Assembly: GCA_964647565.1 (NCBI GenBank)
Contig: CAZYIM010000007.1
Coordinates: 1 to 64,000 of the forward strand
Length of the DNA stretch: 64,000 nt
Direction: 5' to 3'
From: an uncultured Methanosarcinales archaeon
Lineage (GTDB): Archaea > Nanobdellota > Nanobdellia > Woesearchaeales > CAZYIM01
The position numbers and the translations under genes are program-made. Positions 6,930 through 45,600 of this stretch are shown here, one piece after another. A model generated the notes under the pieces. It was given only the letters and a program-made list of their open reading frames with translations. It ran no database searches and had not been told where the DNA came from. Numbering within the stretch: the stretch's first letter is position 1; every line of letters begins with the position of its first letter.

Positions 6930-6966
6930 CAAGTGATTAATACAAATAACAACGAGGAGGATAAAA

Positions 6967-10122: not shown

Positions 10123-10163
10123 TTGTCTGTAGATATTTTGATTTTTCTTGAAAATAAAAAAAA

Positions 10164-10571: not shown

Positions 10572-10643
10572 TTTATCGACCTCTTATATGTTTGTTATGC
10601 ACCTTTTTAAGGGCAGTCACAGGGTTTTTTAACCCTTTATAAA
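10569..10643 (-). repeat. Promoter/5' leader repeat, copy 2
   Basis: About 85% identical to 4996-5071. Confidence 0.85.
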
Positions 10644-10717
10644 AGTTATTATTTTAACTCCTTACAAGTAGTAAATAATCGAAACCTTTATAAACTAGTA
10701 AATCAATAAATGCTCTT

Positions 10718-11185: not shown

Positions 11186-11188
11186 AAA

Positions 11189-12556: not shown

Positions 12557-12673
12557 GAATAACCATTACAACCCCCATTATATAAATCTTTCTTTTTCTC
12601 CTCCATTTTTGGAGAGTAAATATTTAAATACTAATAACACTTAATAGTAGTAACATAAAAGGAGGTAAATAAA

Positions 12674-13249: not shown

Positions 13250-13292
13250 TTATTTTTTATTTTTTTATATTAACAACAAAGAGGTGAATAAA

Positions 13293-26248: not shown

Positions 26249-27514
26249 TTAGCTCAGGCTCCATGTGTCAGTTGCAGTACCATACAGCCAGAAGCCTCTT
26301 CCCGGATACAAGGTGGAAAGATCGTTTAGGAACGACAAGCTCGGATCAGAATAGTAAACCCTGAAGACACCGCTTGAGAATCCCCACATAGATGAGTAGG
26401 ATCCGTCAATTGAGGTCATAGCAGTAGCCACATCCAGTCCGTCTGAATCAATTGAATTCAATCCGACCAGGTTCCATCCAGAAACAATCGCAACACTGTC
26501 TGTATTTGCATCGCCAGCAAACAATAGATTATCTGCGCCGGTCATGGACAGCCAGTATCCCTTGCCTGGCACAATATTGGTCAGGTCATTCAGAAACGAC
26601 AAGCTCGGATCAGAATAATACACCTGGAACACTCCACTGGTGAATCCCCAGACAGATACATAGTTGCCGTCAATGCTTGACAAGGCCCCTCCAACTGACG
26701 CATTATCCAGATCAACAGGTGTGCTGAACAGGTTCCAACCGGATATCAAGGATATGTTAACACTGACTACACCTGTTCCATTGCTGACATTGATTATGGT
26801 GGTTGCACTTGCATCCCTTGCATTGTCAGATGTGATGCTGACATTGAAATCATAATCCATTCCAGGCGGCAAAGGAGGAAGCTGCAGGTTCCATGTTATG
26901 TACTTGGTAGTCGATTCAGAGACATCTATGACAATGTCTGTCTTGTTCTCAGTGCCATTGATAGTACCGTTCAGGGTTGTGGTCAGGATGATATCAATGT
27001 TCCTTATATCTACCTGTGATTGGCTTGTTGTTATTGCCAGCGTCACAGAGACATTGTTATCAGTTCCATTGGTGACAGTGTAGTTGTCGTCGCTAAAAGT
27101 TGGTGTTATGGTCTGTGGCGGCAATACATTGACAACTGTACTCTTCGAAGCGATGTTATTGCTGTCGTCTGAGTGCGTAAAGGTCCATGTTATGGTCCTT
27201 CCATGAATATTCAACATACAAGCAAGACCTACTCCTGTGATCTCAAAGGTCGTCGAAGGATTTGAACCAGTGACTTGTTTGCTTGATGAGTCAAGCTGTA
27301 TACAGCTGGTTGAGAAGCCGCTTGGCTCAATGGTCACTGTGTCTGTCGTTGCTCCTATATCCGAGCAAGTCACAGTCACATCCTCGCTGCTGCCCTGTAT
27401 GACAGCCATAGAAGAGGCGACAGTACAGGTTGTTGCTGTTGCCATGCCTGCCAAGATAACAAGCATCAATGTCATTATTGCCAACAGGATTGTCTTTTTC
27501 ATTTTAGTCATCAT
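26249..27514 (-). CDS. Secreted protein with two GWNL...PGxGY/FW repeats
   Basis: Signal peptide; duplicated C-terminal domain with identical YYSDPSLSFLNDL. Confidence 0.85.
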   Translation of the reverse strand: MMTKMKKTILLAIMTLMLVILAGMATATTCTVASSMAVIQGSSEDVTVTCSDIGATTDTVTIEPSGFSTSCIQLDSSSKQVTGSNPSTTFEITGVGLACMLNIHGRTITWTFTHSDDSNNIASKSTVVNVLPPQTITPTFSDDNYTVTNGTDNNVSVTLAITTSQSQVDIRNIDIILTTTLNGTINGTENKTDIVIDVSESTTKYITWNLQLPPLPPGMDYDFNVSITSDNARDASATTIINVSNGTGVVSVNISLISGWNLFSTPVDLDNASVGGALSSIDGNYVSVWGFTSGVFQVYYSDPSLSFLNDLTNIVPGKGYWLSMTGADNLLFAGDANTDSVAIVSGWNLVGLNSIDSDGLDVATAMTSIDGSYSSMWGFSSGVFRVYYSDPSLSFLNDLSTLYPGRGFWLYGTATDTWSLS

Positions 27515-27515
27515 T

Positions 27516-30500
27516 TTACCACACCCCCCCAGTAGAATTCATGTACAGGGAAACATCTGCCCAGAAATTGGTCGGATCTGCAGGCACCCTCAACTGACAT
27601 TGGTCAGCTGCCTGGTCTGCTAATGGATCAAGCAATATCACTCCATTATCCAATGGCAAGTCATTCTCCCAGTCAGAGACATCTACAGTATCATAGATAA
27701 TGTCATTCGTTGTTGTAGTATCTGCAGGGCTATGACCAAAATAATCGATCCTCGTCCTAGCTGGCCAGGTAGTGTTAGCTTCAAAGTATATATCTAATGT
27801 CTCAAAGCCACCAGGTAATGAAATATTGCCGTTGTCATTCGCTGGATCCCACGCAACATCAACTCCAAGATTCATATTGGCAGGATCAAGGAAGAATAGA
27901 TTACTGCCTCCTGTTGGAAGACTGGTCACAAAGACAGCCTTATTATTGACTGAATCCCAATAAAAGACATCAATGGAAAAGTTCGAGGAATAGAGATAGA
28001 CCTTATCAGTAATGGTTCCATTGATACTGATGCCAGTGTTGGTTGTATTCGAACTTATCCTTAAAGATGATTCTCCAGCATGCAAGGGTGATCCATCTAA
28101 TCCATTTGCATAAAGGGACTCTACAACAGTATCAACAGTGTAGAGTGTATAGCTGTTCACAACAGGCACTGAGATGTTGAGCCTAACCCGATCCGTGTCT
28201 GCCCAATTCCAAGGAGTCCATATAGCATGGCCATCCTTGGTCCTGGTGCTTTGGTTCCATGCAGAAATATCACGCGTTCCATACAAGACATCATCTGTTA
28301 TTGACGTCCTTGAAGTGCTGTGGCCAAAATAATTGAATTCCCCAGGATTAGAAGGATCTTCTTCAAAGTAAAGGAAAATATCCTGGTCAGAGTCCACTAT
28401 GATAAACGTACCGTTGTCATTGGTGGTATCCCAATGTATGTCTATAGGTATAGAAGTGACGCCTGTATCAATAAAGAAGACAGCATCTGCGTTAGTAGTC
28501 AATGACCTATGGAATACTGCTTTGGAAGTCCCTACATCCCTATAATAGATATCAAGGCTTGAACCATCCGAATATAAATAAGCTTCGTCTGTGGTCTTAC
28601 CACCGACAATCAGGCCTACATTTCCATTACTCACAGATTCGAATCTCAAAACTTTAGCTGATGAAACATCTGGCGAAGGATTGCCTGGCAAAGCATATAG
28701 GTCCTGAGTACTCATTTCAAAATCATAGGTTATGATGTCAGTGCTCGACAAGCCATCAAACTTTATGCAAAGGTAGTTTCCAGGTGTGCAAGCCTCTTCA
28801 CCAACATATAACGGATGCTGTATGGCAGGATTTTCAGTTTCATCAGGATCGTCGACATCCAAGAACCATCTCGTTCCTAAGGTCATATATTGTGTATCAA
28901 GACCAGACAACACCCAAGTCCAAATTGGATTAGTTACATCTTCTCCCATGAATGCATCATTGTGGCTATATGTTTTTGTACTTCCATTATCCAGCTCAAC
29001 AGTTACTGAATCATCTGATGGTGCGCCCACGATTTTCAGGGTCTTGCCTAAGAATGGAAGCAAGATGAATTCAGTTGGAGATGTGTTGGATATATAGTTG
29101 CCGTTCTGCAGACCATCATCAAAGTGTGGATTATAGTAAAGGTCTGCAACAGTAATAGGTATAAACACTCTCTCCTGCCAAGCATCAGAAGGTAGAAATG
29201 TCAGACCAGTCTCAACAGCTATTCCTGGGTTCAGAACCAAGTCTTCTGAAAAGTTGTAGTCATTGTTGACACCATTGATATTAATATTCATAACTGTTTC
29301 TATCATCTCAGAAATGTCTTGATTGTTGACTATGCTTCCAAACATACCCGGATCTCTCAGTTGAGTGCCTAGCGGTACGTCCAGGTTCCAGGCCGCTGAA
29401 GTTACTGCAGGTTGTCCGCAGACAGCATTTAAGGACAGGTTCCTGATATGTGACCAGACATTCGAGTCCAATGTATTCCAGATCTCAATCATCATGGTCT
29501 GGCCAGGATAGTTGTTAAATTGGGTCATGTTGAATGTGTAGACTCCATATGCGGCGCCGGTTGCATTCAGTATAGTTGCTGTCTCATTGAACAATGTACC
29601 CATGGTCGTGTTATGTACATGGACTAATATCGTATTATCCACACCTGCACGTCCTTCAAATGTCAAGTTGTAGTATGTACAGTCTGAACGCAATTTAACA
29701 CCTTGCTCGATGACACCCAATAACTCTTCATCGTTGCTGCCCATCAGATGCAAGACATTTGGCTGATCCACTACAGGATCACAGCTGCCTGTTGTATCAG
29801 TGGTATAGCAGTACAGGTTGATCAGTGATGCATTGTTCATCCACTGGTGGAGACCAATGCCACTCCTGGTTGCATTGAATTCAGTCTCATCACTAATAGT
29901 GAAATTCCTGAACTGAGGATTCAATAAGAATCCAGACGTGCTGACAGGAGGTCCTTGAGGAGCTTCGTTCAAACAAACAGAGTCACATCCATCTCCATTG
30001 TCTGTGTTGCTGTCATCACACTCTTCATTCAGGTTCAATACAGCCGTACAGTCATTGTTACAGTAGCTACCGCTATGGATTGTACCGTCACCACATGTTT
30101 CTGTAACAGTATTACTGTCATCACAAACCTCAGATCCAGTTGGACTACCGTCTCCACAAACATCTGGAACTGAAGGAGCACTTCCATTGGAAAACTTGAC
30201 CAACCAGAAGTCTTCATTGCCTGCTCCAAGGGAGTCTGTGTTTCCCACTATCACAACACTATTATCTTCCGCTACGATAACATCATAACCATTCTCAGTA
30301 GGTACATAGCCCCAGAGCAATCCCCATTCAACTTCACCAGTAGAATTGGTTTGGACAATCAATAAATCCTCGCTACCTGCCCCAAGAACAGAATCAGAAA
30401 ATCCGACCAGGACAAATCCGCCGGAAGATGTCTGTCCTATTCCATAAGAACCAAATTCATTACCAGCAGTACCTATACTCACATTCCAAAGGTGTGTTCC

Positions 30501-33500
30501 GTTCTCATCTGTCTTGATAAGCCAGAAATCAGAACCACCATAGGCTGCATAGGAGGTAGTGTAACCAGATATGATAAATCCATTATCTGAGGTCTCTTGC
30601 ACATCATAACCCCAATCATTATTTGATCCTCCAAAGGTATAGTTCCACTCATGACCTCCAGTGCTGTTGGCCTTGATCAACCAGATATCGTCATTTCCTG
30701 CACCATATGAATTAGTGGATCCTACCATAATAAATCCTCCATCAGAAGTCTGGTCCAGAGCCCTGGCAATATCATTATTGGTTCCACCATAAGTCTGGTT
30801 CCATAAAGGAGTACCATTCTCATCTGTCTTCAGCAACCAGAAATCATTGACATTGGTTGAATCAACCCTCAGGTAACCAGCAACAATCAGTCCACCATCA
30901 GGAGTCTCCTGGATATCGTAACCTGCATCTGGGAATAATTTACCATAACTTTGGTTCCATAGCACAATTCCCGAACCATTTGTCTTGACTATCCAAAGTT
31001 CATCAGGGGGATCTACGCCATATGACTCTGTGTAGCCAACAATCGCGTAGCCGCCATCAGAGGTATTGGTAACTCCAAAAGCATCCCTATCATTAGCTGC
31101 TCCGCCAATACTGCTATTCCACAATATGTTCCCTGCTGCATCTGTTTTTACAAGCCAGAAATTATAATCAGTTCCAGGGAAGGATGTAGATTCACCAGCT
31201 AAGATATACCCTCCATCAGGAGTTTGCTTAAGGGCTTGTCCCCTATCAATCCAAGGTCCGCCATAGGTCTCATTCATTTCAATTGTAGGAGGTGCTGCGC
31301 ATGCCATCCAATTCTGCCCTACATAACTGCCTCCGCAGCTGTTGCTGTCTGTCCAGCCGCCGACACAGGTCTGATTACCATTCAAGCACATACTCCACTG
31401 ATCGCATGTCCAATTGGCATTGCCGCAGGTCAGGATGTCAAACATAGTCGTATCCTCAGCCCACAAACCTGTATAGTCTGTTGCATTTTCAGGGTCATCC
31501 ACCCAGGCCATATTAGTCACGTTATTGGCACTGCAGTTAGCAGTTATATTAACCAAAACAATGAAACTCTGACCAGATGTAAGATTGACACCGAAATTCG
31601 TGGTCAGATCTGTCCATTGCAGCAACTCATTTGCCAAGTCAACTGTATCTGGCGCTGGTGATGCCCAACTATAGTTCAGGCAGCTCGTATTAAATGTGTC
31701 CTCCAAAGGCACGCCTACAAATGTTGTGTTACCTGTGTTCGTGATGTTAATCTCGAACTTAATGGTCTCATTAACCCAAGGCATTCCATTTGGCATAACT
31801 TTGGTCTTGATAACACTGATGTTCTGACCTGATCCTCCGCTTGGCGCATCTTCTGTACATACAGAAGGCTCACCAGTGCAGGTCCATCCAGATTCCTCAT
31901 GGCATACTGAGTCACAGCCGTCTCCTGATTCAGGAGGACTATCTCCGTCATCACACTCTTCTCCGCCAGTAATAGCACTGTCACCACAGACATCCTCATG
32001 TCCTGGTCCTGGTCCACCCATCACAGGCACCCATCCACCAGTATCATTGGTGTATTGCCATCCGCTGTTGGGCACAAGATCAACAGTAGAGCTTAGGTTT
32101 GCCGCATAATAATTTACTGGATTACATCCATTTTGGTCACACCAGTCCATGGTCCAGCTAGAGTAGTATGCTGTCCAGTTGGTCATATAGACTCCAAGCA
32201 GGATCTGCTCAGGGTCATTGAAGGCCATCAATGACTTATCAACCTTGAAATCAATAGTCCCAAAGTCACAGACAACAGAGTAGTTGGCCTGACTTGGACT
32301 TGCATTGACAACCTGCCACACACCTGCAGAACATCCATAAAGGGTTCCGTTCACATAGCTTGCGCTCTGCCTGAACCTGACTTCGTACTTATAGTCAGCT
32401 CCAGTAGCATCACACGTACCACCAGGTACTGTGTCATAGAAGACCACATATCTCTGGCCATTGATTTGGCCCCTGTCAGTACTCGGGTATGAACCTCCAC
32501 AGTATGGTATGCCGCCATGCCATTCAAAGCCACCTGTCTCCATCTGGACATATATATAACTAGAGTCATTGGCCACATAAGCAGTGGTTATATCTCCACC
32601 TGGGCTTCCTCCGAATGGCTTAGCTTCATCAGCGCCTTCGTTACCATCCCAGCCCCAGTTGACACCTGCTGACCAGTTGCCAAAGGCATCACTAGACTTG
32701 TTCCAATTATAAAGCCAGGCAATATTAGATGAATCATAGTATTCACAGTTACACCAGCACTCTGCTATTGTATCCTCACCAAATGGTGTTGCTGTACAAT
32801 TCGCAGACGTCTGGCAATCACAGTTGCCTCCCATATCACTATGACACTGATGGTCCATCTGATCGCACCACTCACCTTGTGCACAATCAGAATCAGAACT
32901 GCATCCAATATGGTCATCCGGAAGATATACACATCTACCAGCTTCACAGAAAGCAGTATGGTCTGGAGGTGTATCCAGACAATTTGCAGCCTGCGTACAT
33001 TCTAGAGCAGTTGCATTCTCAGACCTGCACTCATAGTGCTCACAGAAGTCATAGGTGTTTGCATTGGAATCATCACAATCACTATCTTCTGCACAATTGC
33101 CTGTGACATTCTCACAATTGCCCTGCCAGTTACAGATTCCATAGAGGCCCATGCTAGCATTGTTTGAACACTCAAAGTCAGAAGTACATGAGACCGCACT
33201 CACATTGTTGTGCACACATTCCATAAGCACACAGACATCCCATGTTGAGTTGTCGTCGTCATTACAATCTGTATTTCTCATACATTCTCCTGCACTGCTG
33301 TTGACCTCATACTCAAGAGCCAGCATGTTCTCAAAGTTTGCATTGAACATGAATCCAGATCCTTTGTCCTGGATCGGCACCATGGTTAAGTATTCGCCTG
33401 GCCTATTCCTTGCCAACACCATGAAATGAGTCAATCCTCCAATATTAGGATTGAGATAGGTCTCTCCACCATAGAAGTCCTCTTTACCAGACTCTGGACC

Positions 33501-36500
33501 TCCACCCATCATCTCCTGCATAGATACAACTCCGTTTGACTGTCTCATATGCTGCGCAAATGGCGCTATAGCATATGCAGCAGCATTTGCAGGGCTTGTA
33601 TTGATATTTATCGATACAAACTCATTAGCCTGCACAATCGGATTATCCACTGTTGTCAAGAACGCAGAGCTTCCATTCTCATAGATAAGAATCATTCCAT
33701 CCAGGAATTCAATCATCTTACACTCTGTACCATTGTGTTCTTCATCAAACCAACAGTTGTTAGGATCAAGGATGTCTGTTATCAACATCACAGGTCCTGG
33801 GCTTGCATTAAGAGGTATGGTCAGATTAAACTCTACTGTTCCATTGTCAAATGCTACAACATCAGGAAGCTCATCCAGCATCACATCTGTAAGGAAGCAC
33901 ATGCCGCCTGAGCCGCCGCCACCACCAGATGGAGGGGCTGTGTTGTCAGGAGTTCCTTCTGGTCCGCCGCATTCATTACATCTAGTGTCACAATCTACAG
34001 CGCATGGTGATCCTCCAGGACAACCACTGCAATCAGTTTCACAAAAACCTCCTGGTTCGCAGTCTGGACTTCCTTGTTCAGGACCATCCATCATATGGTC
34101 TTCCCAGCTGCATCCGGGTGTTGAGTTGCAGGCATCCTGTGACCATTTGGACATACACGCCATCTCTTCTTCCATGTTGGCAAACTTAGATTCCTCTAGA
34201 GATGCAGAAACCGCATACTCATTGCCAACAGGGCTTCCATTGGTATAAAATGCTGTTATAGTTACTGGAATCTCATCACCAGGGAAAAATCCTAACTGTC
34301 CTGTATTTAGAGTCAGGTTGAATTTTCGGACAATGAAATTCTTATGGGTCCAGAACCAACCTTTCTCATGGGCATCGACATTCACCATAACCTCGTATTC
34401 TCCTTTTTTCAGAGCATTCTCTCCTGAGAAGTCAAAGGTGGCAACACCATTGTAGTTGGTATGCTTTTCTTCACGGATTCCTCCTCCGCCACCGCCAAAG
34501 CCGCCTCCGGTCTTGACAGCGTGACATTCATCCATTCCATAGTCATACCAGCACCAGCCTTCCTGATTCATGCATTCTGGCTCATTACCATCATAGTTGG
34601 CACATTGGCTATCCAGGAAAAGACAGTTAGGTTCCTCCCACCAACAACCCTCTTCAGGCATACATTGTACTGTTGTGTTTTTCTCAGAACAGTTGACCTC
34701 TTCTTCCTCTTGGGCTGCTCCGCCTTCAAACCAGTGTCTGCGAAGTTCCAATTCAACTCTGGCATTATCAATAGGTGATCCTGTCAGCGCATCACTTGCA
34801 ATGACAGTGATGGTTGCATCATCTCCCTGATAGAGCACTTTTTTCTGGCCGTCGATATCAACATCAACATTCAGTCCCTTGATCCTGAACCATCTCTGGA
34901 TCTTCTGGGTATCGACACCATCGCTTACCTCAAGCACCAGCTCATATTCAGATGGATGGCCTGGAGCCTGGAATTCTCCGATATATTCTCCATTGGCATC
35001 AGTGTAACCTGTTAAGTTAAAGGTCCTCTCAACCATATGACCTGCCCAGATATTCCTAAGCTCGATCCATTCAACACTTGCGTTGAATAAAGGTGATCCA
35101 TTGTAATATGTCACTTTTAACCAGAAACTTACATTCTGGTTGGCCATGATATTTTCAGGCATCAACATTGCAGGCTGGAAAGATGCAATATTAAACCAGG
35201 TATCCCTAAAGATATTCAAGTCTTCACACCAGACCTTCGCCATATACTCTTTTGCTTCGAGATCAGATGGTACCACCCATTTCAACATTGTCATTGGAGG
35301 TCCCCATGGATCTGTCGGGTACTCTAGCCATTGGGTCAGGTCGCCAGATGTCTTGACAACATCCCAGGTCTCTGAATCCCTTATTTCAGCAATCTCTATG
35401 TTGCCGCAGATAGCAGTCTCATTCTCATTGAACCAGCTCTGCCTGTTCCAGATCTCTACATTTACAGTGGCGTTTTGGCCTGTCCAAAGATTCCAGTTCT
35501 CTGTCCATGCATCGAACTGATAGTCTGCTTCTGCTCCTCCGAGCACCTCGAACCAAAGCCATTTCTCCTTTTCAGGATACCAGCCACCCCAATCACCTTG
35601 TTTTCTGAGTTCTACGATTGCTTCATATTCCCCAGAATCCATTGGTGCTGAGAAATTCAGGGTGAATGCACCGCTAACAGCCTCTAAGGCATCATAGTCC
35701 AAGCACTGGCCTATCCAGTGGGTCCGCCAGTCTCTCAGGCTTTGGACCCTGTCTAAACAAAGCTCTGATTTGTTATCATAGCCAGTAACATTGATAGATA
35801 CAAAGACCAAATCTCCTGGGCCTTTGCTATCCACATCATAGTTAGAGGTATCGTTGAGTGTTGGATCTGCTGTTAGCTCAACAGCCCAACTCGTTGCAGT
35901 TATCCTAAACCAGCGCCTCATCATGGTTGTTGATGCACCGTTTTGTATCTGGACTTCCATATCATAGTCCTTACCTGCAGTAAGATTAGCAATTCCAAAC
36001 CTTAACTCAGCAAGTCCATTTGCGTCTGTTGATGTATCTGTTGTGATACCTGTAATGTCACTCATTACACTCGTACCAGGCCCATTATGACCTATCTGCC
36101 AGACATCAATGAGTGTTACATTTGCTCCTGCTATTGCAGAACCGTTCTGATAGTTTACATCAACACTGACCACTACATTTGCAGTGGTAGGGAGTTCCCA
36201 ATCACCATAGGTTGCGTCTTCTCCAGTGACCTCTCCCCACACATTCATCCAGACATCGAATGGGCTTACCATTACGCCCCACCATCTTGTGACTGCACCG
36301 TTACCGATGTCTATCTCAAGATCATAGAATCCGTTGGCATCAGCTGGAAGGTCATAGTTGATGGTTGCTTTTCCATCTGCATCTGTGTCTCCGGCACTGC
36401 CATTGGCTATATCATTCCAGTTATCGGATTCGCTTCTGACTGTATAGTTCACTGACATGCCGCTGACAGGAGTGCCGTCATCTTCTTTGACATACACTTC

Positions 36501-39500
36501 AAGTGATAGAGTATCTCCTGCTGCATAAGGCCAAGGAGTTATTTCATAAATATCCACCCAAAGACTTGATGAGCTGACAGTTACTGTCCTTATCTCATTT
36601 TGGTCTGTCCAGTTGAGGATCGCTCTGAAGCTTCCCTTAAGATGAGGTGGTATTGTAAATGCAAGCTGGGCCTCACCATTGGCATCAGTAGTATCAGTGG
36701 TAGTTGTCAGATAGCTTACATCTATGGTCTGATTACCCCATTCAACATACTCAAGCTCCATGGTCTGACCGCTGATACCGCTACCATCAGGATTCCTGGC
36801 ATTGACAAACAAGTTGACAGTGTCTCCTGGCTTATAGTCTGGCCTGTCTGGCCATGCCCAGAAGTCTCCTGCAGATATCCTGAACCAGACATGCCTTATG
36901 ACCTGGTTGCTGCCTATATTGAATGCAACTTCTGCTTCATACTCGCCTAATGCAACTTGCGGGTTAAAACTAAAGCTTACAACACCGTCGCCTCCAATGA
37001 CTAGGTCGTTGGCAGTGATACCCACGCTGTCATTTAGAACATTCCAGTTCATCGGGTTGAAATATTGTAGTATTGTGACATTGATCTCTCCGCCATTCAG
37101 TGGATTGCCATCAACATCATATACAGTAAATTCAAGAGTCAGGTTTTCGCCATTGCCAATAAAGGTGTGCATGTTCTCCCAGTTGAAGAACACATCAAAT
37201 CCTGACTTGATATCAAATGGATAGTGAGCTTCCACATGCATAGGGCTATCAAGATCAGGGATGGCTGCGATTGCAACATACGGACCGCCGTCTGCAAAGA
37301 CCATGGTTTCCTGGTGGAATCCTGTTCCATCAGTAGTAAAGTCAGCCGTGAGTCCATCTAGTCTTACCCAACCGTCTGCATCAAAGATGTAAAGTTTTCC
37401 ATCTGTATCTGCAGGTCCTGAAATATTGAAATCAACATTATCTCCTGTTGAATACCTTGGCGGCTGAAAGTCCGGTGAGTCCATTGAAGAACCATCGCTG
37501 GTTATCAGGTCCAGATCATACTGCTTGACATAGAAGTGTATCATAGCCGTGTAGTTGACACCCAAATACTCTATTGCTACCTCAGCCTCGTAACCACCAG
37601 GATCAAGGGCAAAGCCTGTAAGGTTGACCAGTTTCCAACCTGCATTTGGAGAGTCTCCAACTGCCACAGTGAATTCAGAGGCCAGGTCAGTAGGACCATT
37701 CCATATATGCTGCAGATATACATCGCCATCTGCAACAGCTATAGCTCCGCCAACATTATTTTCCAGTTTAACCTCTAATGATATTGTATCTCCAGATGCA
37801 TAGCCACCCATTGGGTTAAATGGCCTGCCCCATGGGAAGACATTGTTATAGACATTGAAGGTGTATACCCTTTGGTCGCTTGTATTGGTGCATGTTGCAC
37901 CAGTATAGATACACAACTCAACATCAAATGTGCCTGATTGGGTCAGACCAGAAAGATCATATGTATAATTCTGTTCCTGTCCTTCACTGAAACTCTGCTC
38001 TGTACCTGCAATATTGACTGCTTGCCCAGTATCGATGTTAGTCAGGCCGGTAACATTTATCTTTATATCACCGCCAGTATTCACTCCAAAGACTAATGTC
38101 TGTCCCAGATCAATACCATATGTCCTCAGCCAAACATCATAGTCAAAAGTAGCACCAACTATCTCAAAGGTAACCGGTATTGACTTGATGTTATTATCAG
38201 TATCCTTTGCCTGAGTCACAAGCATATACTTGCCTTTCTTGGAGGGTGCTGTGAATCTCAATATGTTTGTTGTATCGAAGTCAGATGTCTTCTTAGCTCC
38301 AAGCTCGCTTACCCAAGGAGGTGGAGATGCAACCTTGCATTGAGGAGACAGGCAGGTGTATTGAACAAGCTTAAGCTCATTCATGTCAACTGCTCCGCCG
38401 CCAGGATTGCTCAACAAGAAATTGACGCTAATGTTGCTTTCAGGAACAAATTGTGTTGTCTGCGCTCCATTGCTGTCCTGAAGCTGGACTTCTACTTCTG
38501 TCTGATAAACTCCCAATTCACAAGGCCACATGCCTGCTGAATAGGAATCACTTGAAAGCTCCTCACCGTTCACAGATGGAATAGGTCTGTATCTGCCAAT
38601 TGAACTTGGTGCAGTAACAGTAATAGTAGCCACACCATCAGCATTGGTGGTTCCAGAGCTGGTTGTAGTCGCAACCTTGTCAGTCCATGACTCAAGATCT
38701 GTGAATTTAGTGATGCTCACATTTTGGTCAGCCACACCTGTTCCGTCTGTATTAGTAATAGTTATCTTGTACTGGACAGATGATGAAGGCGAGACTGTCG
38801 ATTGGTCTGAATCTACAAAAGAACATGACAGGCTTGAGAACTTTTGGATCTGCAAGTAGTCAATATATTCCTCTGCTTCTCCTGTGTTAGGATTAAAGGC
38901 ATCAATCACATAGACATAGACATCCTCTATTGCAGGGGTTGAGTTGACATTAAGCTCAAAGCTGCCCCATGCATTGGTTGTTGTAGGGCTGGCTCCTATC
39001 TGTTCTACAAGATCAAAGTTCTGTGTGTCATAGAATCCTTCAAAGGATATGTTGATATTAGGTATCAGGTTGAAATCCGGATCAAACACAAAGCCGTATA
39101 TAGTTGTCGGTACGCTTGGTTGTGCATAATAGAATGGCATGGTGTATGCGTAGACAAAGAATGATTTTACCATGAACCATGCTTCCCGGATCTCCTCAAC
39201 CGAACCTGTATCGACTTTCACGAACACAAGGTAGTCTCCTTTCTTAAGACTCTGGCCTGATTTAGGTTTTACAGTCACAACTGTCTGGCCGCCAGCAGTG
39301 GTGTTGGTGGTCGCAGTATATTTGTCTGTAGAGATGACCTTAGGAGATTTTCCAGATATGAACAACAGCTTATCAACAGTAACATTAGAACCATTTGGAA
39401 CTGGCGTGCCATTAAAGAAGTTGGCAGTCACTGATAATTGCACTGTATCAGTAGGTTTGAAGACAAATGCAGAGCTTCCTGATCGCTGCGTATCTACAAA

Positions 39501-41612
39501 GACATCAAGATTGCTGACCTGGAAGAAAGCTGTCCCTGTATCAACACTACCCTCATCATCTGTAACCTCTACTTCTGCTTCATAGAATCCTGAAGTCAGG
39601 CTTAAAGGTTCCAAGGAGAGATTGATCACTGGTTTTCCCTTGCTTCCTGTTGTTGCATTGACTACTGCATGTCCAGTAGAGGTAACATTCATACCCTCTT
39701 CGCTCACACTGTAGGTGGTGCCTGTTATTATATTGGTCAGACCAGTCAATTCGACTGTCAACTTGGAAGCAGCAACCTGCTGCCAGGCATCATTCATAAC
39801 ATTGACATGGAAATAGGCATTTGAATCAGAGGCAAACCTCCAAGCCCAATCCCAATTGGCACCTGTTTTTTTCTTGGTCTCAACCCAGATATCATACTTC
39901 TGGACGCAGACTTGCTCTTGAGTATAAGAGGTTCCATTGGCAGTCTCAACTTTCATTGTACAGACATAGCATCCACCGTCAGACGGCGCACTCATGTTTA
40001 CACTTGAACCGTTATTTGTGGCATCACCACCACTAAGCATATCATCTGTAACATCATTGCCGTCGCCGTCAACACAGCCTTCGACAGTGACCCTGTCTAC
40101 AGAAGTCTCAAAGTTGCTTGACAGCCAGGCCTCAGTATCAAAGGTAAGGCTCTCGCCTGAGCGGACCTTCCATTTCATGTTCTCAAACCTGTCTTTTACA
40201 GATGCGGTCGAGAAAACACTCTGGACTGTGATGTAGACAGTACCAGTTATGTAAGAGGTTGTTGTATTGACTCTTATCTTCAATTCATAGGTTCCACCAG
40301 TATTTGGCGTCACGAAATTGAGGAATTTGGTAAAGCCCTCGATTGTACTATCCGCCATGGTGCCAGTTGTGGGCAGATCTGCCAGGCAGTCCTTGCCGTC
40401 CTTCTTGCAGGATATGATATCTGCGTCTGTTATCTGGCTGCTGACATAGGAGTCGCCTGTTGCCAGATCAACTACATTGATGCCTACTGTAACATTATCA
40501 TTCTTGAGAAAAGCTGTGATATCCTTATTTGCGAATATTGGTTCCAGTTCAAGATCAAGGCTATTGATAATCATGAATTTCTTCTGGGTCACAGACTGCG
40601 TCTTTGTGGCTGTGACTTCAACATAATAATTTCCGCTCTGCACTGAATTAAGCTTGTATGGCGTTGAGGTATAGACGCCATCGCTCTCAGTGAAATCAGA
40701 AGCACTAAAAGTATGCTGGGTTGTTCCTGAAGTATCTTCATTGTTGGACTTTAGTTGTGCAGAAATCTGGACACCAGAAACAGGTACAACGTTTCCGCCT
40801 GAACTCTCTTTTGTGATAATTACTTTTACGCTGACATTGTTAGCTGTGCTGAACTTATTGGTCTTAACATTCTTATCATTCAATAGGATGACATCAACAT
40901 TGAAGTAAGGAACCTTGAACATTGCCATGGACTTGCCGTTCTTGACATCAACCAGGTATTCACCATAGGCTGCAGCCTCATCTGGTACAGTGTAGATCAC
41001 AGTTGCAGTACCATTGGTTGTTGTTAAGCCTGGCTGGTCAATGACTGGCGTTCCGTCTTCCCTGAAAACTATCAGAGGAACCTCTGCACCATCTGCAGGT
41101 GTCTTAGTGCCATTGGCATCAATATCATAGACCTCTATTGTTATGGTGACATTGTCACCGATGTCATAGATATATTGATCAGTGTAAACTTGGTATTCTC
41201 TTTCTCCCTCAACAAAGAAGAAGGCAAAGCCCATTGTGGGCGGCATGGGGGGTATAGCGTTGCTCAGAAGTTGTACGATAGCAGTATATTGTCCAGAGGT
41301 GCTCGTACCAGTGAAATTGTCTGAGGTGAACTTACCTTCAGCGTCTGTAAGCAGGGTGCCCTGCGCATTGACAGTCGTGCTTGAACCCGCCGGATTGCGG
41401 ATAACAACAGATATATTACGATTCGCCAGAGGGCTGCCGCTACTGTCTAAGGCTAATCCTCCAACTGTGACAATGTCATCTGTCTGGAAGTGCATGGTCG
41501 GATTGATGTTGACCTGCACGCTGTCTGCCATTACATAACTTCCTGCCAGTACAAAAACAATGCACAACAGAAACATGGTTTTGTTTAACAAATTGTTTGC
41601 TCTATACCTCAT
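27516..41612 (-). CDS. 4698-aa giant secreted protein (macroglobulin-like domains, Cys-rich/DUF4215, DUF11-like, beta-propeller, S-layer-like C-terminus)
   Basis: Signal peptide; repeated TDQYIY.IGD.V and PDRPDYKPGDTV motifs; CGD...EECDD...GDGC repeats; QT.DGG.I..G...D.WL.KTD repeats; GAGGTG RBS. Confidence 0.9.
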   Translation of the reverse strand: MRYRANNLLNKTMFLLCIVFVLAGSYVMADSVQVNINPTMHFQTDDIVTVGGLALDSSGSPLANRNISVVIRNPAGSSTTVNAQGTLLTDAEGKFTSDNFTGTSTSGQYTAIVQLLSNAIPPMPPTMGFAFFFVEGEREYQVYTDQYIYDIGDNVTITIEVYDIDANGTKTPADGAEVPLIVFREDGTPVIDQPGLTTTNGTATVIYTVPDEAAAYGEYLVDVKNGKSMAMFKVPYFNVDVILLNDKNVKTNKFSTANNVSVKVIITKESSGGNVVPVSGVQISAQLKSNNEDTSGTTQHTFSASDFTESDGVYTSTPYKLNSVQSGNYYVEVTATKTQSVTQKKFMIINSLDLELEPIFANKDITAFLKNDNVTVGINVVDLATGDSYVSSQITDADIISCKKDGKDCLADLPTTGTMADSTIEGFTKFLNFVTPNTGGTYELKIRVNTTTSYITGTVYITVQSVFSTASVKDRFENMKWKVRSGESLTFDTEAWLSSNFETSVDRVTVEGCVDGDGNDVTDDMLSGGDATNNGSSVNMSAPSDGGCYVCTMKVETANGTSYTQEQVCVQKYDIWVETKKKTGANWDWAWRFASDSNAYFHVNVMNDAWQQVAASKLTVELTGLTNIITGTTYSVSEEGMNVTSTGHAVVNATTGSKGKPVINLSLEPLSLTSGFYEAEVEVTDDEGSVDTGTAFFQVSNLDVFVDTQRSGSSAFVFKPTDTVQLSVTANFFNGTPVPNGSNVTVDKLLFISGKSPKVISTDKYTATTNTTAGGQTVVTVKPKSGQSLKKGDYLVFVKVDTGSVEEIREAWFMVKSFFVYAYTMPFYYAQPSVPTTIYGFVFDPDFNLIPNINISFEGFYDTQNFDLVEQIGASPTTTNAWGSFELNVNSTPAIEDVYVYVIDAFNPNTGEAEEYIDYLQIQKFSSLSCSFVDSDQSTVSPSSSVQYKITITNTDGTGVADQNVSITKFTDLESWTDKVATTTSSGTTNADGVATITVTAPSSIGRYRPIPSVNGEELSSDSYSAGMWPCELGVYQTEVEVQLQDSNGAQTTQFVPESNISVNFLLSNPGGGAVDMNELKLVQYTCLSPQCKVASPPPWVSELGAKKTSDFDTTNILRFTAPSKKGKYMLVTQAKDTDNNIKSIPVTFEIVGATFDYDVWLRTYGIDLGQTLVFGVNTGGDIKINVTGLTNIDTGQAVNIAGTEQSFSEGQEQNYTYDLSGLTQSGTFDVELCIYTGATCTNTSDQRVYTFNVYNNVFPWGRPFNPMGGYASGDTISLEVKLENNVGGAIAVADGDVYLQHIWNGPTDLASEFTVAVGDSPNAGWKLVNLTGFALDPGGYEAEVAIEYLGVNYTAMIHFYVKQYDLDLITSDGSSMDSPDFQPPRYSTGDNVDFNISGPADTDGKLYIFDADGWVRLDGLTADFTTDGTGFHQETMVFADGGPYVAIAAIPDLDSPMHVEAHYPFDIKSGFDVFFNWENMHTFIGNGENLTLEFTVYDVDGNPLNGGEINVTILQYFNPMNWNVLNDSVGITANDLVIGGDGVVSFSFNPQVALGEYEAEVAFNIGSNQVIRHVWFRISAGDFWAWPDRPDYKPGDTVNLFVNARNPDGSGISGQTMELEYVEWGNQTIDVSYLTTTTDTTDANGEAQLAFTIPPHLKGSFRAILNWTDQNEIRTVTVSSSSLWVDIYEITPWPYAAGDTLSLEVYVKEDDGTPVSGMSVNYTVRSESDNWNDIANGSAGDTDADGKATINYDLPADANGFYDLEIDIGNGAVTRWWGVMVSPFDVWMNVWGEVTGEDATYGDWELPTTANVVVSVDVNYQNGSAIAGANVTLIDVWQIGHNGPGTSVMSDITGITTDTSTDANGLAELRFGIANLTAGKDYDMEVQIQNGASTTMMRRWFRITATSWAVELTADPTLNDTSNYDVDSKGPGDLVFVSINVTGYDNKSELCLDRVQSLRDWRTHWIGQCLDYDALEAVSGAFTLNFSAPMDSGEYEAIVELRKQGDWGGWYPEKEKWLWFEVLGGAEADYQFDAWTENWNLWTGQNATVNVEIWNRQSWFNENETAICGNIEIAEIRDSETWDVVKTSGDLTQWLEYPTDPWGPPMTMLKWVVPSDLEAKEYMAKVWCEDLNIFRDTWFNIASFQPAMLMPENIMANQNVSFWLKVTYYNGSPLFNASVEWIELRNIWAGHMVERTFNLTGYTDANGEYIGEFQAPGHPSEYELVLEVSDGVDTQKIQRWFRIKGLNVDVDIDGQKKVLYQGDDATITVIASDALTGSPIDNARVELELRRHWFEGGAAQEEEEVNCSEKNTTVQCMPEEGCWWEEPNCLFLDSQCANYDGNEPECMNQEGWCWYDYGMDECHAVKTGGGFGGGGGGIREEKHTNYNGVATFDFSGENALKKGEYEVMVNVDAHEKGWFWTHKNFIVRKFNLTLNTGQLGFFPGDEIPVTITAFYTNGSPVGNEYAVSASLEESKFANMEEEMACMSKWSQDACNSTPGCSWEDHMMDGPEQGSPDCEPGGFCETDCSGCPGGSPCAVDCDTRCNECGGPEGTPDNTAPPSGGGGGSGGMCFLTDVMLDELPDVVAFDNGTVEFNLTIPLNASPGPVMLITDILDPNNCWFDEEHNGTECKMIEFLDGMILIYENGSSAFLTTVDNPIVQANEFVSININTSPANAAAYAIAPFAQHMRQSNGVVSMQEMMGGGPESGKEDFYGGETYLNPNIGGLTHFMVLARNRPGEYLTMVPIQDKGSGFMFNANFENMLALEYEVNSSAGECMRNTDCNDDDNSTWDVCVLMECVHNNVSAVSCTSDFECSNNASMGLYGICNWQGNCENVTGNCAEDSDCDDSNANTYDFCEHYECRSENATALECTQAANCLDTPPDHTAFCEAGRCVYLPDDHIGCSSDSDCAQGEWCDQMDHQCHSDMGGNCDCQTSANCTATPFGEDTIAECWCNCEYYDSSNIAWLYNWNKSSDAFGNWSAGVNWGWDGNEGADEAKPFGGSPGGDITTAYVANDSSYIYVQMETGGFEWHGGIPYCGGSYPSTDRGQINGQRYVVFYDTVPGGTCDATGADYKYEVRFRQSASYVNGTLYGCSAGVWQVVNASPSQANYSVVCDFGTIDFKVDKSLMAFNDPEQILLGVYMTNWTAYYSSWTMDWCDQNGCNPVNYYAANLSSTVDLVPNSGWQYTNDTGGWVPVMGGPGPGHEDVCGDSAITGGEECDDGDSPPESGDGCDSVCHEESGWTCTGEPSVCTEDAPSGGSGQNISVIKTKVMPNGMPWVNETIKFEINITNTGNTTFVGVPLEDTFNTSCLNYSWASPAPDTVDLANELLQWTDLTTNFGVNLTSGQSFIVLVNITANCSANNVTNMAWVDDPENATDYTGLWAEDTTMFDILTCGNANWTCDQWSMCLNGNQTCVGGWTDSNSCGGSYVGQNWMACAAPPTIEMNETYGGPWIDRGQALKQTPDGGYILAGESTSFPGTDYNFWLVKTDAAGNILWNSSIGGAANDRDAFGVTNTSDGGYAIVGYTESYGVDPPDELWIVKTNGSGIVLWNQSYGKLFPDAGYDIQETPDGGLIVAGYLRVDSTNVNDFWLLKTDENGTPLWNQTYGGTNNDIARALDQTSDGGFIMVGSTNSYGAGNDDIWLIKANSTGGHEWNYTFGGSNNDWGYDVQETSDNGFIISGYTTSYAAYGGSDFWLIKTDENGTHLWNVSIGTAGNEFGSYGIGQTSSGGFVLVGFSDSVLGAGSEDLLIVQTNSTGEVEWGLLWGYVPTENGYDVIVAEDNSVVIVGNTDSLGAGNEDFWLVKFSNGSAPSVPDVCGDGSPTGSEVCDDSNTVTETCGDGTIHSGSYCNNDCTAVLNLNEECDDSNTDNGDGCDSVCLNEAPQGPPVSTSGFLLNPQFRNFTISDETEFNATRSGIGLHQWMNNASLINLYCYTTDTTGSCDPVVDQPNVLHLMGSNDEELLGVIEQGVKLRSDCTYYNLTFEGRAGVDNTILVHVHNTTMGTLFNETATILNATGAAYGVYTFNMTQFNNYPGQTMMIEIWNTLDSNVWSHIRNLSLNAVCGQPAVTSAAWNLDVPLGTQLRDPGMFGSIVNNQDISEMIETVMNININGVNNDYNFSEDLVLNPGIAVETGLTFLPSDAWQERVFIPITVADLYYNPHFDDGLQNGNYISNTSPTEFILLPFLGKTLKIVGAPSDDSVTVELDNGSTKTYSHNDAFMGEDVTNPIWTWVLSGLDTQYMTLGTRWFLDVDDPDETENPAIQHPLYVGEEACTPGNYLCIKFDGLSSTDIITYDFEMSTQDLYALPGNPSPDVSSAKVLRFESVSNGNVGLIVGGKTTDEAYLYSDGSSLDIYYRDVGTSKAVFHRSLTTNADAVFFIDTGVTSIPIDIHWDTTNDNGTFIIVDSDQDIFLYFEEDPSNPGEFNYFGHSTSRTSITDDVLYGTRDISAWNQSTRTKDGHAIWTPWNWADTDRVRLNISVPVVNSYTLYTVDTVVESLYANGLDGSPLHAGESSLRISSNTTNTGISINGTITDKVYLYSSNFSIDVFYWDSVNNKAVFVTSLPTGGSNLFFLDPANMNLGVDVAWDPANDNGNISLPGGFETLDIYFEANTTWPARTRIDYFGHSPADTTTTNDIIYDTVDVSDWENDLPLDNGVILLDPLADQAADQCQLRVPADPTNFWADVSLYMNSTGGVW

Positions 41613-42637: not shown

Positions 42638-45600
42638 TTACTTAAACAGCTTCTTGATCTGCTTCTTGGACCAGCCCTTGGCCTTCAAAGCCTTGCTGAT
42701 GTCTTTCTTAGAATATCCCTTGTCAAGTTGATGCGCTACGAACTTCTCCAGCTCCTTCCTCTTAGCATCTGTCAAACCGACTTTAGCCTCTTTCTTGGCG
42801 TCTTTCTTAGTCTCTTTCTTAGTCTCTTTCTTCTTTTCTATCTTCTTCTCTTCTTTCTTATGTTTTTTCTTGCCTTTCTTTTCTGCTTTGTCAGCCTTAT
42901 CAGGAGGAGGAGCCTTTTTGACATCCTTAGCCTCTGCTTTCTTGAGTTTCTTGGCAGATGTATGCAGAATGTCATCCACAACCTTAGCTTTCCATCCTTT
43001 GGCCACCAAAACATCTCTTATATGGGCGTGGTCGTGACCTTTCTCCATCTGGTGCTCAATAAAGGATTCAAGCTGTTTAATCTTGTTGTGAGGCATATGC
43101 ACATTATGCTCAATTAACTCTTTCTCATCAATCTTGAACTTCTTTTTATTCTGCCTAGCAGTAGCTAAGATCATCCACCATCCTACGATCAGCATGACCA
43201 ATAATAGCACAAGCCATGGCCATAGCTCCTTGATCTTCTTGATAAAGACAGGAGGTACTGGCGGTTCAATTACATCATCACTTGGTCCACATAGGGAAGG
43301 CATGCCTGTACAACGCCAACCTGCCTCAATTGCGCATGCATCTGAGCAGCCATCTCCAGTCACCAAGTTGCCATCATCGCACTCTTCTCCTTCGCTGAGT
43401 ATACCATCTCCGCAAACCAATAATGGAGCCACTACTTCTTTGGTCTTGAGGCCGATTGCATAGTAGCTCAAGGCTTCTGAAGTTGCCATATAGTAGTAGA
43501 ATGTATCATCTTCATCTACTAATGTAGTTGGCAATATATTCCATTTATTATCCTCAAACCTATAGAGCACTACATCTCCAGGTTCTGCTGCATATGAGCT
43601 CACCCAGACCTTTGCAACCTTGAAATATATCTTGGCAGATGAGATCTGGTCATCATCAAGGTTATCTTTTGTGATCTCAAGGTATTTGTAAGCCTTGTTA
43701 GCTTCAACATCAACTGGCGAAGCATCAAGCAGTGTGACAGTGATCTTGACATTTCTGGCCACCTTCTCGAAGACCACATCAATCTTGCTCACTGCCTTAT
43801 TAGGATCAGTGACATCAAGGCTCTTGGTCTCTCCAGCCCTGACCAGGGTCCATACGTCTGGATCCGTGGCAGCACTACTTCCGCCACCACCTACAGTATC
43901 AGGTTCAATATATATACAAGCCCTGTTGTTGCCGCCGCCATAAACAGCACCGCAGCTGTTGGCATCTGTCCATCCAGTACAGCTTTGTATTCCATTTGAT
44001 TGACAAGTATTCCATCCATCACAGGACCATGAAGGCGTACATGTTGAGTTAGTCTGGCTAAGAGCTGTATGGTTCAGACCCTCAACTACAAACTTGTTGA
44101 TATCAGCATCATAGTTACAGATGTACTGTCCGAAATATGTTGCGCCGTCGCAAGGTATTATCATTTCTTCAGTTCCATTACATAGGGAAGATATCTCGCT
44201 GACAGAGGCAACCGGCTTATCCTTGACACAGACCTTCTGCTTAGATGCGTCGATCCTGGTTATCCTTACTGTCTTGGTCTCTGACTGTCCAGTCAGGTTG
44301 ATACCTGTTATCACAACCACAGACACACCTTCTCCTGTATCTGGGTCAACTACGATCTCTTCGTTGATTGTGACATTTGAAAGGTCCAGTTTGGTTGTAT
44401 TTGCGAAAGTGAAGTTGAACTCAACAATTGGAACAGCCTCAGTCTGGTTAGTGGTCTCATTGATGACATTGGCCATGAACTCTATCTTTTTCTCACCAGC
44501 AAACTCCTGGCTTGTGTTGGTTGAGTTCTCAACCCTGAATGTCAGGTTATCGATATTGGTGTCCACAAAGCTGACATTACCTAAGAGGAAGTCAACAGAT
44601 TCGTTGATCGGATCATTATCAAAGTCAGCTCCCTGGTCTTCGTCGCAAGCATCTCCAATTGTATCTAGATCAGTATCTGCCTGTCCAGCATTGGCCACAA
44701 ACTTACAGTTGTCAGCATAATCTGAGACACCGTCGCCGTCAGAGTCCCTGACATCAGTCGCAGTTAGGTTCCAGGTCTGGGTTGTAGTGTCAATACCATC
44801 AGTTACCTCAGCAATGATCGTGTAGGTTCCAGCAGATAGTGAGTCTGGCACCATGTTGAACCAGCCTCCTGTGCTGTTATAGGCAGTTGCATCTTCTCCC
44901 TTCCTTACAAACCACTGTGCCTGGGCAGTATTGTCGCCCTGCGCATCCGTAAAGGTTACACTGTAGTTGATGGTCTGGTCTTCTCTTATTGTTGTTGCCA
45001 GATCCTGAGTTGCAGCGGCTGCACCAACCTTGCTTGAGAAGTTGGTGATGACCGGAGCAGCATTGGTGTTGTTGATGAACGCATTGAAGGTCTCGCTGTC
45101 CCAGCTATTGCCGTCTGTTACATTGATTATGACATTGTTATGCCAGCCTATGGTCTCGCCGGAAGTGATCCTGACAGTTGCGCTTGCAACTGCATCGTTA
45201 GTTACAGTTAAGTTAGCCAGAGTACTAGCGCTCTGTACAGCAAATGTAAGGTTGGCGTCCTCTTCATCAACTGCGCTGACTGTGTAGGCATTGAGTGCAG
45301 TGTTGATGCCTGTCAGGCCGCCTATTGGATTAAGTACCGGTGCATCATTGACTGGATTGATGGTCAAGGCAAAGACATCGCTGTCAACACCGCCTCTTCC
45401 GTCGTATACACTCACTCTTATATTATAGGTGCCGTTCTGGTTGTTCACAGGTGTGAAGTTAATCACTCCCTGGCCATTAACAGTTGTGATCGTAAATAGT
45501 GTGCTATTGGTTCCAAAGGTCAATGGATCTCCATTGCCATCTGTTGCATTTGCAATGTGCACAAAGTTAGTATCCTCAGTTGCAGTCCTGTCTGCCACAG

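Follow-up and report, generated by a model that had tools for sequence, protein, structure and literature searches.

A 4698-residue secreted archaeal protein ends in an anchorless paralogue of the S-layer protein tile and may be held in the cell's own lattice

The window analyzed here is a stretch of 64,000 nucleotides (positions 1 to 64,000, forward strand, of contig CAZYIM010000007.1, assembly GCA_964647565.1) from an archaeon labelled as uncultured Methanosarcinales and placed by GTDB in the Woesearchaeales. Among its genes is a single reading frame for a 4698-aa protein, which we call the giant. "Own SLP" denotes the 714-aa S-layer protein (SLP) of the same genome, and "tile" the central, lattice-forming part of an SLP. 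G000 is the source assembly, G064 and G369 are genomes of the same order, P-numbers are database proteins, and X1 and X2 are sequencing runs. The giant can be read in three parts, a conserved core (residues 1 to ~3190-3390), a lineage-specific tail and a final 621-aa paralogue of the SLP tile, with the following features from N- to C-terminus (MG, macroglobulin; Ig, immunoglobulin; CBM, carbohydrate-binding module; HMM, hidden Markov model; AF2, AlphaFold2; pLDDT, its per-residue confidence score):

27516..41612, reverse strand: whole coding sequence, 4698 aa plus stop; ATG start, no internal stop
41526..41612, reverse strand: signal-peptide-like N-terminus, residues 1-29 (basic n-region, hydrophobic core, VMA|DS); cleavage predicted from hydropathy and sequence
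34347..41540, reverse strand: about 21-22 tandem MG/Ig-like beta-sandwiches of ~105 aa, residues 25-2422; self-trained HMM and Pfam MG2/MG4
32733..34346, reverse strand: Cys-rich repeats mixed with beta-sandwich pieces, residues 2423-2960, placed by Cys positions, with an MG3-like piece at 2428-2495 (22.9 against 23.1 bits)
32013..32690, reverse strand: possible DOMON/CBM9-like domain, residues 2975-3200, the last domain of the conserved core; an ESM-Atlas lead only
31488..31994, reverse strand: DUF4215/myxo-type Cys repeat, then a DUF11/DUF7507-like domain, residues 3207-3375; TIGR02232, DUF11 and DUF7507 scans
30123..31427, reverse strand: Cys-rich module common with the neighbouring protein p1388, then seven ~53-aa repeats (putative seven-bladed propeller), residues 3396-3830; start of the lineage-specific tail
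29382..30158, reverse strand: DUF4215-like Cys repeats, then a possible carbohydrate-binding jelly roll of ~190 aa, residues 3819-4077
28743..29381, reverse strand: tile subdomain A, residues 4078-4290; aligns to own SLP 94-300, AF2 pLDDT mostly above 90
28173..28727, reverse strand: tile subdomain B, copy 1, residues 4296-4480; aligns to own SLP ~385-575
27582..28142, reverse strand: tile subdomain B, copy 2 (B'), residues 4491-4677; occupies the position of the C-half of the SLP anchoring domain

The only strongly hydrophobic 19-aa stretch of the giant (Kyte-Doolittle mean >1.8) begins at residues 11-14, and the hydropathy scan finds no C-terminal transmembrane (TM) helix, as the original prediction, made from the letters of the window, had held. 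N-X-S/T sequons number 123 against 58.7 ± 7.0 in shuffled sequences, a twofold enrichment, and the giant is probably a secreted, heavily N-glycosylated extracellular protein.

A search of the tail against the assembly (2,676,741 bases) recovered one paralogue, the own SLP (G000:C3:28075-30219), a 714-aa open reading frame (ORF) with a signal peptide. It matches PF05124 (S_layer_C) with 60.8 bits in a split match spanning residues 32-688, and TIGR01564 with 29.3 bits (cut-off 25). Its 53 relatives are 392-1250 aa long, some of them named "S-layer protein" at source, and belong to metagenome-assembled genomes (MAGs) of Woesearchaeota, Nanoarchaeia and the DPANN group; the candidate is a canonical SLP, and the DPANN setting that the original prediction had assumed agrees with these labels and with the organism's order-level kin. 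Giant residues 4078-4480 align colinearly with own SLP 94-575 (BLASTP, E 2e-65, 31% identity over 500 columns), tblastn blocks between the giant tail and the SLP gene reach 40-41% identity, and the second repeat of the giant matches own SLP 363-593 at E 7e-32. The suggestion that the last ~620 aa are S-layer-like is thus borne out by direct alignment to the genome's own SLP. So is the tandem duplication proposed for the C-terminus: Smith-Waterman alignment of residues 4296-4480 with 4491-4677 scores 275, compared with 39.3 ± 6.6 (maximum 64) in 200 shuffles, a relationship that a BLASTP self-comparison missed.

Both halves of the SLP anchor (own SLP 1-93 and 600-714) are absent from the giant, as is an insert of ~75 aa (220-293) within the tile. 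The conserved motifs of the family are kept, and near-invariant tile residues are retained (12 listed, two of them checked by eye). Pfam returned no family at E ≤ 1 for the last 649 aa, and so no PF05124, and HMMs of the anchor halves, built from 34 SLPs, had no match in the giant at E ≤ 1e-3. Since the anchoring domain was not found in it, the giant is not itself an SLP.

The AF2 model of the own SLP (pLDDT 83.5) has two parts joined by low-confidence linkers at 75-82 and 598-611. Its combined N- and C-terminal segments superpose on the anchoring domain of the Methanococcus voltae SLP (PDB 9fsa_A; Z 16.5, rmsd 2.4 Å, 123 of 135 residues, 31% identity), and its central part (88-591) on the DUF1608 domain of the Methanosarcina acetivorans S-layer protein (3u2h_A; Z 7.6, 211 residues aligned). 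In the available part of the SymProFold study (PMC11410804), the split domain is described as a dimeric anchor on the anchoring side, and the central part as arranged like the M. acetivorans lattice. The insert domain of the own SLP (226-303) gives middling matches (Z 6.1-6.8) to periplasmic domains of CcmF/CcsBA and to domain I of class II fusion proteins, archaeal Fsx1 among them; these model-based matches probably reflect a common beta arrangement only.

Giant residues 4078-4497 are modelled with pLDDT mostly above 90. For 4498-4698 pLDDT was <50, and the alignment held no homologues there, SLP anchor sequence being placed instead. The top VIA-align match of the 4078-4497 model is again 3u2h_A (Z 8.1, rmsd 3.5, 134 aligned, 15% identity; next match Z 5.8). 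Best scores of Z ~7-8 are common according to the tool, so this match is consistent with a DUF1608-like fold and not decisive. Foldseek against the PDB gave only beta-propeller-like noise (TM ~0.1), and no DUF1608 match was listed by Pfam for the whole protein or its last 649 aa. A complex prediction for SLP 85-600 with giant 4078-4497, run without controls, scored 0.00, which weighs neither for nor against docking. In a tree of 64 tile sequences the branch of the giant tile is long (1.52; median 0.64), and no sister relationship to the own SLP is recovered; the own SLP groups with P0003 (100% SH-aLRT).

Tiles without an anchor are not confined to the giant. Five HMMs (anchor-N, tile A, insert, tile B and anchor-C) were run over 187 family proteins and the giant. 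Most of the pool is SLP-sized with both anchor halves, and the C-half of the anchor is present in 110 proteins. Twenty, the giant included, end ≤30 aa after a complete tile and have no anchor half; a further 10 continue for >30 aa past a complete tile with no anchor match, 24 have a tile cut short (likely fragments) and 23 have no tile-B match. That so many proteins stop exactly at the tile end makes random truncation unlikely. The other 19 anchorless tile proteins are 357-804 aa long, with 0-307 aa ahead of the tile. P0100 combines Cys-rich repeats with a tile, P0081 and P0076 have a PEGA domain followed by a tile, and P0112 consists of an FG-GAP propeller, a tile, an extra domain and a C-terminal TM helix, which places its tile on the cell-proximal side. 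The 4077 aa ahead of the tile in the giant exceed the longest such part among these proteins (570 aa, in P0112) at least sevenfold.

The fusion itself is rare. A phmmer search with giant 4078-4698 against 1.84 billion representative sequences gave 143 matches at E ≤ 1e-3, all ≤1233 aa and mostly 550-800 aa; the own SLP is the best of the 143, with 41% identity, and the giant is missing from the matches, a sign that very long proteins may be poorly covered by this search. In a word-seeded search among proteins of 2583-8222 aa, the tile was found only in the giant itself (one of 1331 candidates scored). The N-terminal 4077 aa have three clear relatives: the partial sequences P0188 and P0189 (54% identity over giant residues ~525-3254) and the 3629-aa P0190 (44% over 27-3393). 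Two bacterial giants resemble the propeller region only. P0188, the closest partial orthologue of the core, carries the source label Candidatus Lokiarchaeota archaeon in a context that is otherwise all DPANN, and the label may stem from a mistake in binning or labelling.

The core (residues 1 to ~3190) was found in two of 400 other genomes sampled from the same order. The G064 orthologue is a 3650-aa ORF that ends ~260 aa past the equivalent of residue 3393 with an unrelated tail, and that of G369 is a complete 3235-aa ORF ending at the equivalent of residue ~3192. Searches of both genomes with the giant tail gave no match (0/2, no positive control), and both giant ORFs, read directly, end without a tile. 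Since the core and the secreted protein p421 encoded beside it are kept in both genomes without the tail, the comparison of sequences indicates that core plus p421 is an old, rare unit to which propeller, CBM-like domain and tile are a lineage-specific addition.

Several described systems share parts of this layout. The closest precedent is that of the giant cytochromes MHC-A and MHC-B of anaerobic methanotrophic (ANME) archaea, very large extracellular proteins that, like the giant, carry an S-layer (DUF1608) tile towards the C-terminal end, and for which integration into the S-layer through this domain has been proposed (PMC9012536, available part). S-layer integration is, as far as that part of the source goes, a proposal only for these cytochromes, as it is for the giant. 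They have C-terminal TM helices and many CxxCH haems, both lacking in the giant; their tile is DUF1608, whereas that of the giant belongs to the Methanococcales/DPANN SLP family, and the cargo of the giant is an MG/Ig-like array, not a cytochrome. A reading of the giant as a cytochrome conduit is ruled out (0 CxxCH motifs in the 4698 aa). The Methanosarcina DUF1608 paralogues of the major SLP are also akin, being secreted proteins of 34-139 kDa with one or two tiles and with or without a TM anchor; they are far smaller than the giant (≤ ~1,300 aa), have another tile family, are reportedly poorly expressed and, in the accessible part of PMC3361143, carry no MG-array cargo. The hami subunit of Altiarchaeum is, like the giant, an archaeal appendage-type protein with Methanococcales-type SLP sequence, but the segment described in the portion of PMC4460559 at hand is the N-terminal S_layer_N/TIGR01564 part (aa 5-98), the end that the giant lacks, whereas the giant shares the central tile. 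The nanohaloarchaeal 'SPEARE' giants (SVXNc_0300; PMC10266531, available part) combine a Sec signal with long tandem Ig-like arrays and a proposed role in host contact, and end in a TM domain and a cytoplasmic VirB4/TraG-like ATPase; the giant has neither TM helix nor ATPase and ends in a tile, which rules out membership of that type. The own SLP and M. voltae-type SLPs (TIGR01564, PF05124; PDB 9FSA) have a homologous tile with shared motifs, and the giant differs from its own SLP in the missing split anchor and 220-293 insert, the duplicated subdomain B and the 4,077 aa ahead of the tile. Our literature search, which covered neither supplements nor most subscription journals, turned up no account of a DPANN fusion protein whose tile lacks its anchor.

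We propose, and give about an even chance, that the tile docks the giant into the cell's own S-layer lattice. In this reading the layout is a core of about 21-22 MG/Ig-like sandwiches, Cys-rich modules and a DOMON/CBM9-like domain, a tail of a seven-repeat propeller and a CBM-like jelly roll, and a tile paralogue in which a second copy of the last subdomain replaces the anchoring domain that is split between the N- and C-terminal ends of the SLP. Once exported by Sec, the tile would co-assemble with ordinary SLP tiles through lateral tile-tile contacts, most easily, we infer, where both proteins are exported together, and would thereby keep the giant in the S-layer of its own cell with no need of a membrane anchor. 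Ahead of it, 4,077 aa would project as a fibre of ~100 nm, binding glycans or other cells; such an adhesin role, like the host contact put forward in the original prediction, is putative. The most economical reading is that the tile, as tiles do, makes lateral lattice contacts and in this way holds a cargo. Docking into the own lattice is favored by the own SLP being the closest relative of the giant tile, by the C-terminus being the attachment end (through TM anchors) in the large neighbouring surface proteins p1950 and p1388, and, by analogy, by the same polarity in P0112, the ANME S-layer-domain cytochromes and the nanohaloarchaeal giants, in all of which the cell-proximal element is C-terminal.

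Several points weigh against this proposal. In the own SLP model the tile is joined at both termini to the anchoring domain by low-confidence linkers (75-82, 598-611). With the tile seated natively, the 4,077-aa part would therefore start on the cell-facing side, except if the chain passed through the lattice. Several of the small anchorless tile proteins have TM-like or lipobox-like N-termini, which would put the parts ahead of their tiles under the lattice. The G064 and G369 orthologues have no tile, so the core works, and presumably is held, without one; the giant could in fact be held by the conserved p421 or by some small TM protein. Finally, the long, unresolved branch of the giant tile means that lattice contacts may have been lost.

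Some of the same observations suit the opposite polarity, which we consider unlikely, in which the giant is held at or close to its N-terminus (through a signal anchor that stays uncleaved, or through partners such as p421 or the small membrane protein p249) and the variable C-terminal tail is the binding head. The tile might then, with similarly low probability, bind S-layers other than that of its own cell: those of kin, leading to aggregation, or that of a host whose lattice is built from related tiles. Across G000, G064 and G369 the core is retained and the C-terminal tails vary, as in variable-tip adhesins; propeller and CBM-like domain, typical ligand-binding modules, adjoin the tile, and orthologues exist without it. 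A related host lattice is conceivable, given the homologous MSTP-like tiles in class I methanogens and DPANN reported in the accessible part of a preprint (10.1101/2024.05.28.596244). Against a head at the distal tip, the own SLP is nearest to the tile (41% identity, best of 143), the N-terminus resembles a cleavable Sec signal (VMA|DS), and the cell-proximal end is C-terminal in P0112, the ANME cytochromes and the nanohaloarchaeal giants. Entering a closed foreign lattice would also be mechanically harder than joining the cell's own growing one.

The tile could instead have no lattice role, being a reused beta-sandwich spacer or glycan binder in a giant that is shed, or held by operon proteins (p421, small TM proteins). 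We regard this as rather improbable. The long branch of the tile suggests changed constraints, the SLP insert 220-293 is missing, and the giant-p421 pair is kept in G064 and G369, whose giants have no tile. This reading has to contend with the retained near-invariant residues of the tile family and the confident fold of the model (4078-4497, pLDDT mostly above 90), as well as with at least 19 other proteins that have a tile and no anchor, which suggests that the module has a job of its own; lattice formation is its only known role.

What accessory envelope proteins have in common with the major SLP is usually the anchoring module, as in SLH and CWB2 proteins and, with its N-terminus, in the hami subunit. 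The giant does the reverse, sharing the lattice-forming part and dropping the anchor. If its tile seats in the lattice, surface display by protomer mimicry is testable, since the partner (the own SLP) and the domain boundaries are defined, and the 19 smaller anchorless tile proteins would represent a wider, undescribed class. How DPANN archaea attach to surfaces and partner cells is largely unknown, and no DPANN S-layer structure had been solved according to the available portion of PMC11329633. It is tempting, if quite doubtful, to see in the anchorless tile a general archaeal 'lattice plug', a portable module that replaces one protomer of the S-layer crystal to display cargo (here the ~100-nm fibre) with neither membrane nor cell-wall anchor or, in the boldest form, sits at the fibre end and enters the related tile-type S-layer of a partner or host, stitching both lattices together as the physical basis of DPANN attachment.

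The N-terminal array had been described as macroglobulin-like, and the motifs on which this rested lie at giant residues 142, 1587 and 1641. A domain HMM seeded from 12 segments of the giant found 17 strong units of ~105 aa in residues 25-2422, with gaps that fit 4-5 more; being trained on the giant itself, and hence circular, it counts repeats and does not prove homology. Pfam matches for the whole protein were MG2 (60.4 bits, cut-off 32.8), MG4 (32.5, cut-off 24.7) and, just below its cut-off of 23.1, MG3 (22.9), and scans of 300-aa windows placed MG2 at 142-227 (36.3 bits) and 1585-1666 (49.4 bits) and MG4 at 1701-1760 (37.5 bits). When 22 segments were scanned one by one, MG2 was found in 3, MG4 in 2, MG3 in 1 and Big_1 in 4. 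Against PDB sequences, a profile of the 22 segments matched best to E. coli YfhM (E 0.0022) and the MG2 domain of human alpha-2-macroglobulin (A2M; E 0.0053), weak but specific matches.

With MG2 and MG4 above their Pfam cut-offs and YfhM and the A2M MG2 domain leading the PDB matches, the giant might be taken for an alpha-2-macroglobulin-like protease trap or shield in the manner of bacterial YfhM/ECAM. The C.EQ thioester motif is absent from all 4698 aa, as the original prediction had noted, no thioester domain (TED), A2M or receptor-binding family is among the Pfam matches at E ≤ 0.1, A2M_recep is not among the matches for the whole protein or the 300-aa windows, and the bait-region family A2M_BRD, with 17.3 bits in one window, stays below its cut-off of 22.7. 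The A2M family is laid out as MG1-MG7, bait, CUB, TED and MG8, which the layout of the giant (22 tandem sandwiches, propeller, tile) does not resemble. Without thioester, TED or bait region the giant is not an alpha-2-macroglobulin, and a trap function, largely refuted by the missing thioester domain, appears very unlikely. The MG domains of the earlier description therefore stand and the identity with alpha-2-macroglobulin does not: MG-type beta-sandwiches are common to the giant and bacterial alpha-2-macroglobulins (E. coli YfhM, PDB 4ziq/5a42), and the likeness is at the domain level only.

The modules between array and tile agree in part with what had been expected from the letters. Cys-rich repeats are present, in clusters at 2308-2363, 2486-2548 and 2777-2956. 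The DOMON-like domain was not confirmed: residues 2975-3200 have no Pfam match (whole protein or 300-aa windows), and their ESM-Atlas feature neighbours are Glucodextran_C (0.93) and CBM9_1 (0.88), with recognition below the mark set by the tool. DUF4215 holds up through TIGR02232, which scores 43.3 bits (cut-off 20.8) at 3207-3245. The DUF11-like call stands, but as a borderline one (24.7 bits against a cut-off of 24.6 at 3270-3375), and DUF7507 stays below its cut-off (24.6 against 27). At the start of the 3396-3830 region, a Cys-rich module is 41% identical to p1388 residues 926-1009. It is followed at 3440-3830 by the seven ~53-aa repeats, which are 33-39% identical to repeats in the two bacterial giants (P0191 and P0192) and fit the predicted beta-propeller. 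The whole 3396-3830 module is absent from the G064 and G369 orthologues. In the 3819-4077 region DUF4215 scores 21.9-22.3 bits, below the cut-off of 27, and the jelly roll (3885-4077) has CBM_4_9 and GalBD_like as ESM-Atlas neighbours (0.87-0.88), a lead only. No TSP-like module of the kind first reported was found in the giant; a TSP_3 match belongs to its neighbour p1388.

The sequence of the giant shows 0 differences from Logan contigs of four runs in two studies, with no joints and no loose ends. Separate contig pieces from X1 and X2 each bridge the start of the tile (29381) and the border of core and tail (31442), and the junction of B and B' is bridged by pieces in all four runs. That the gene is an assembly chimera of a giant gene and an S-layer gene, or a dead gene, as a MAG of 86 contigs and a read depth of only ~3-5x might suggest, is extremely unlikely in view of a frame unbroken over 14.1 kb, a tile only 31-41% identical to the own SLP and hence not that gene, and the bridging of every junction by separate contigs from the two studies, one of which may be the source of the assembly. 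The stretch is present in eight runs of two studies labelled marine or seawater metagenomes, among which no RNA run is listed. GC content is 0.43-0.46 across the surface-protein locus (window 20000-46000) compared with ~0.38 in its flanks; GC at third codon positions is 0.417 in the giant and 0.22-0.49 in other genes of the window, so amino-acid composition may explain the rise.

Four further genes of the locus encode exported or membrane-anchored proteins:

26249..27514, reverse strand: p421, secreted 421-aa protein directly downstream of the giant; conserved beside the giant in relatives
25498..26247, reverse strand: p249, small type-I membrane protein with signal, ectodomain of ~110 aa, acidic stalk and TM helix
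19549..25401, reverse strand: p1950, large surface protein with C-terminal TM anchor and cytoplasmic tail
42638..46804, reverse strand: p1388, large surface protein with C-terminal TM anchor; two modules common with the giant

Pfam finds nothing in p421, which is 42% identical to the protein of the ORF after the G064 giant and 39% to that after the G369 giant. Its residues 231-421 (window 26249-26824) form two C-terminal repeats of ~95 aa (GWNL...PG.G[YF]W). The same repeat module closes two G064 proteins of 1857 and 1749 aa (L013 ORFs 2251-7824 and 8212-13461) and matches the C-terminal end of a 3875-aa frame of the source genome (G000:C1:11783-12331); from this distribution it may be another surface-attachment module. 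In the place of p249, G064 has a 225-aa ORF without BLAST similarity to it. A domain of ~160 aa is common to p1950 and p1388 (window 19549-20601 and 42638-43891), and we take it to resemble the PGF-pre-PGF domain. In both, a spacer rich in proline comes next, then a single TM helix and a cytoplasmic tail that is helical, Lys-rich and made up in part of repeated ~35-aa units. A secreted S8 subtilase with a fervidolysin-like prodomain (window 48550-50442) is encoded 1.7 kb upstream of p1388, in the same orientation.

The original prediction had placed the giant in a probably small symbiont genome. The assembly has 2,676,741 bases (2.68 Mb) in 86 contigs at 86.9% completeness and 1.85% contamination, and is the largest of 61 genomes listed, with order-level relatives of 0.6-2.3 Mb. 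A 14-kb gene is 0.5% of such a genome, and the argument from a large investment does not apply. Forty-two open frames of at least 1000 aa are present, four of them of at least 3000 aa (5053, 4699, 3875 and 3179 aa); the giant is the second largest, the others lying at C26:13360-28518, C1:11753-23377 and C4:76059-85595. The genome is that of an unusually large (about 2.7-3 Mb) Woesearchaeales-like member rich in giant surface proteins. The window also encodes DAHP synthase and a prephenate dehydrogenase-like protein (6967-8973), which, with the genome size, are unusual for the DPANN type and hint at a less reduced lifestyle. Elsewhere in the genome, a 311-aa protein with an N-terminal HTH-like (helix-turn-helix) region and no signal peptide (G000:C15:12801-13736; L024:3802-4737) matches the C-half of PF05124 with 41.8 bits and has a 321-aa counterpart in G369; by its sequence it is apparently a case of the S-layer anchor fold in a cytoplasmic protein.

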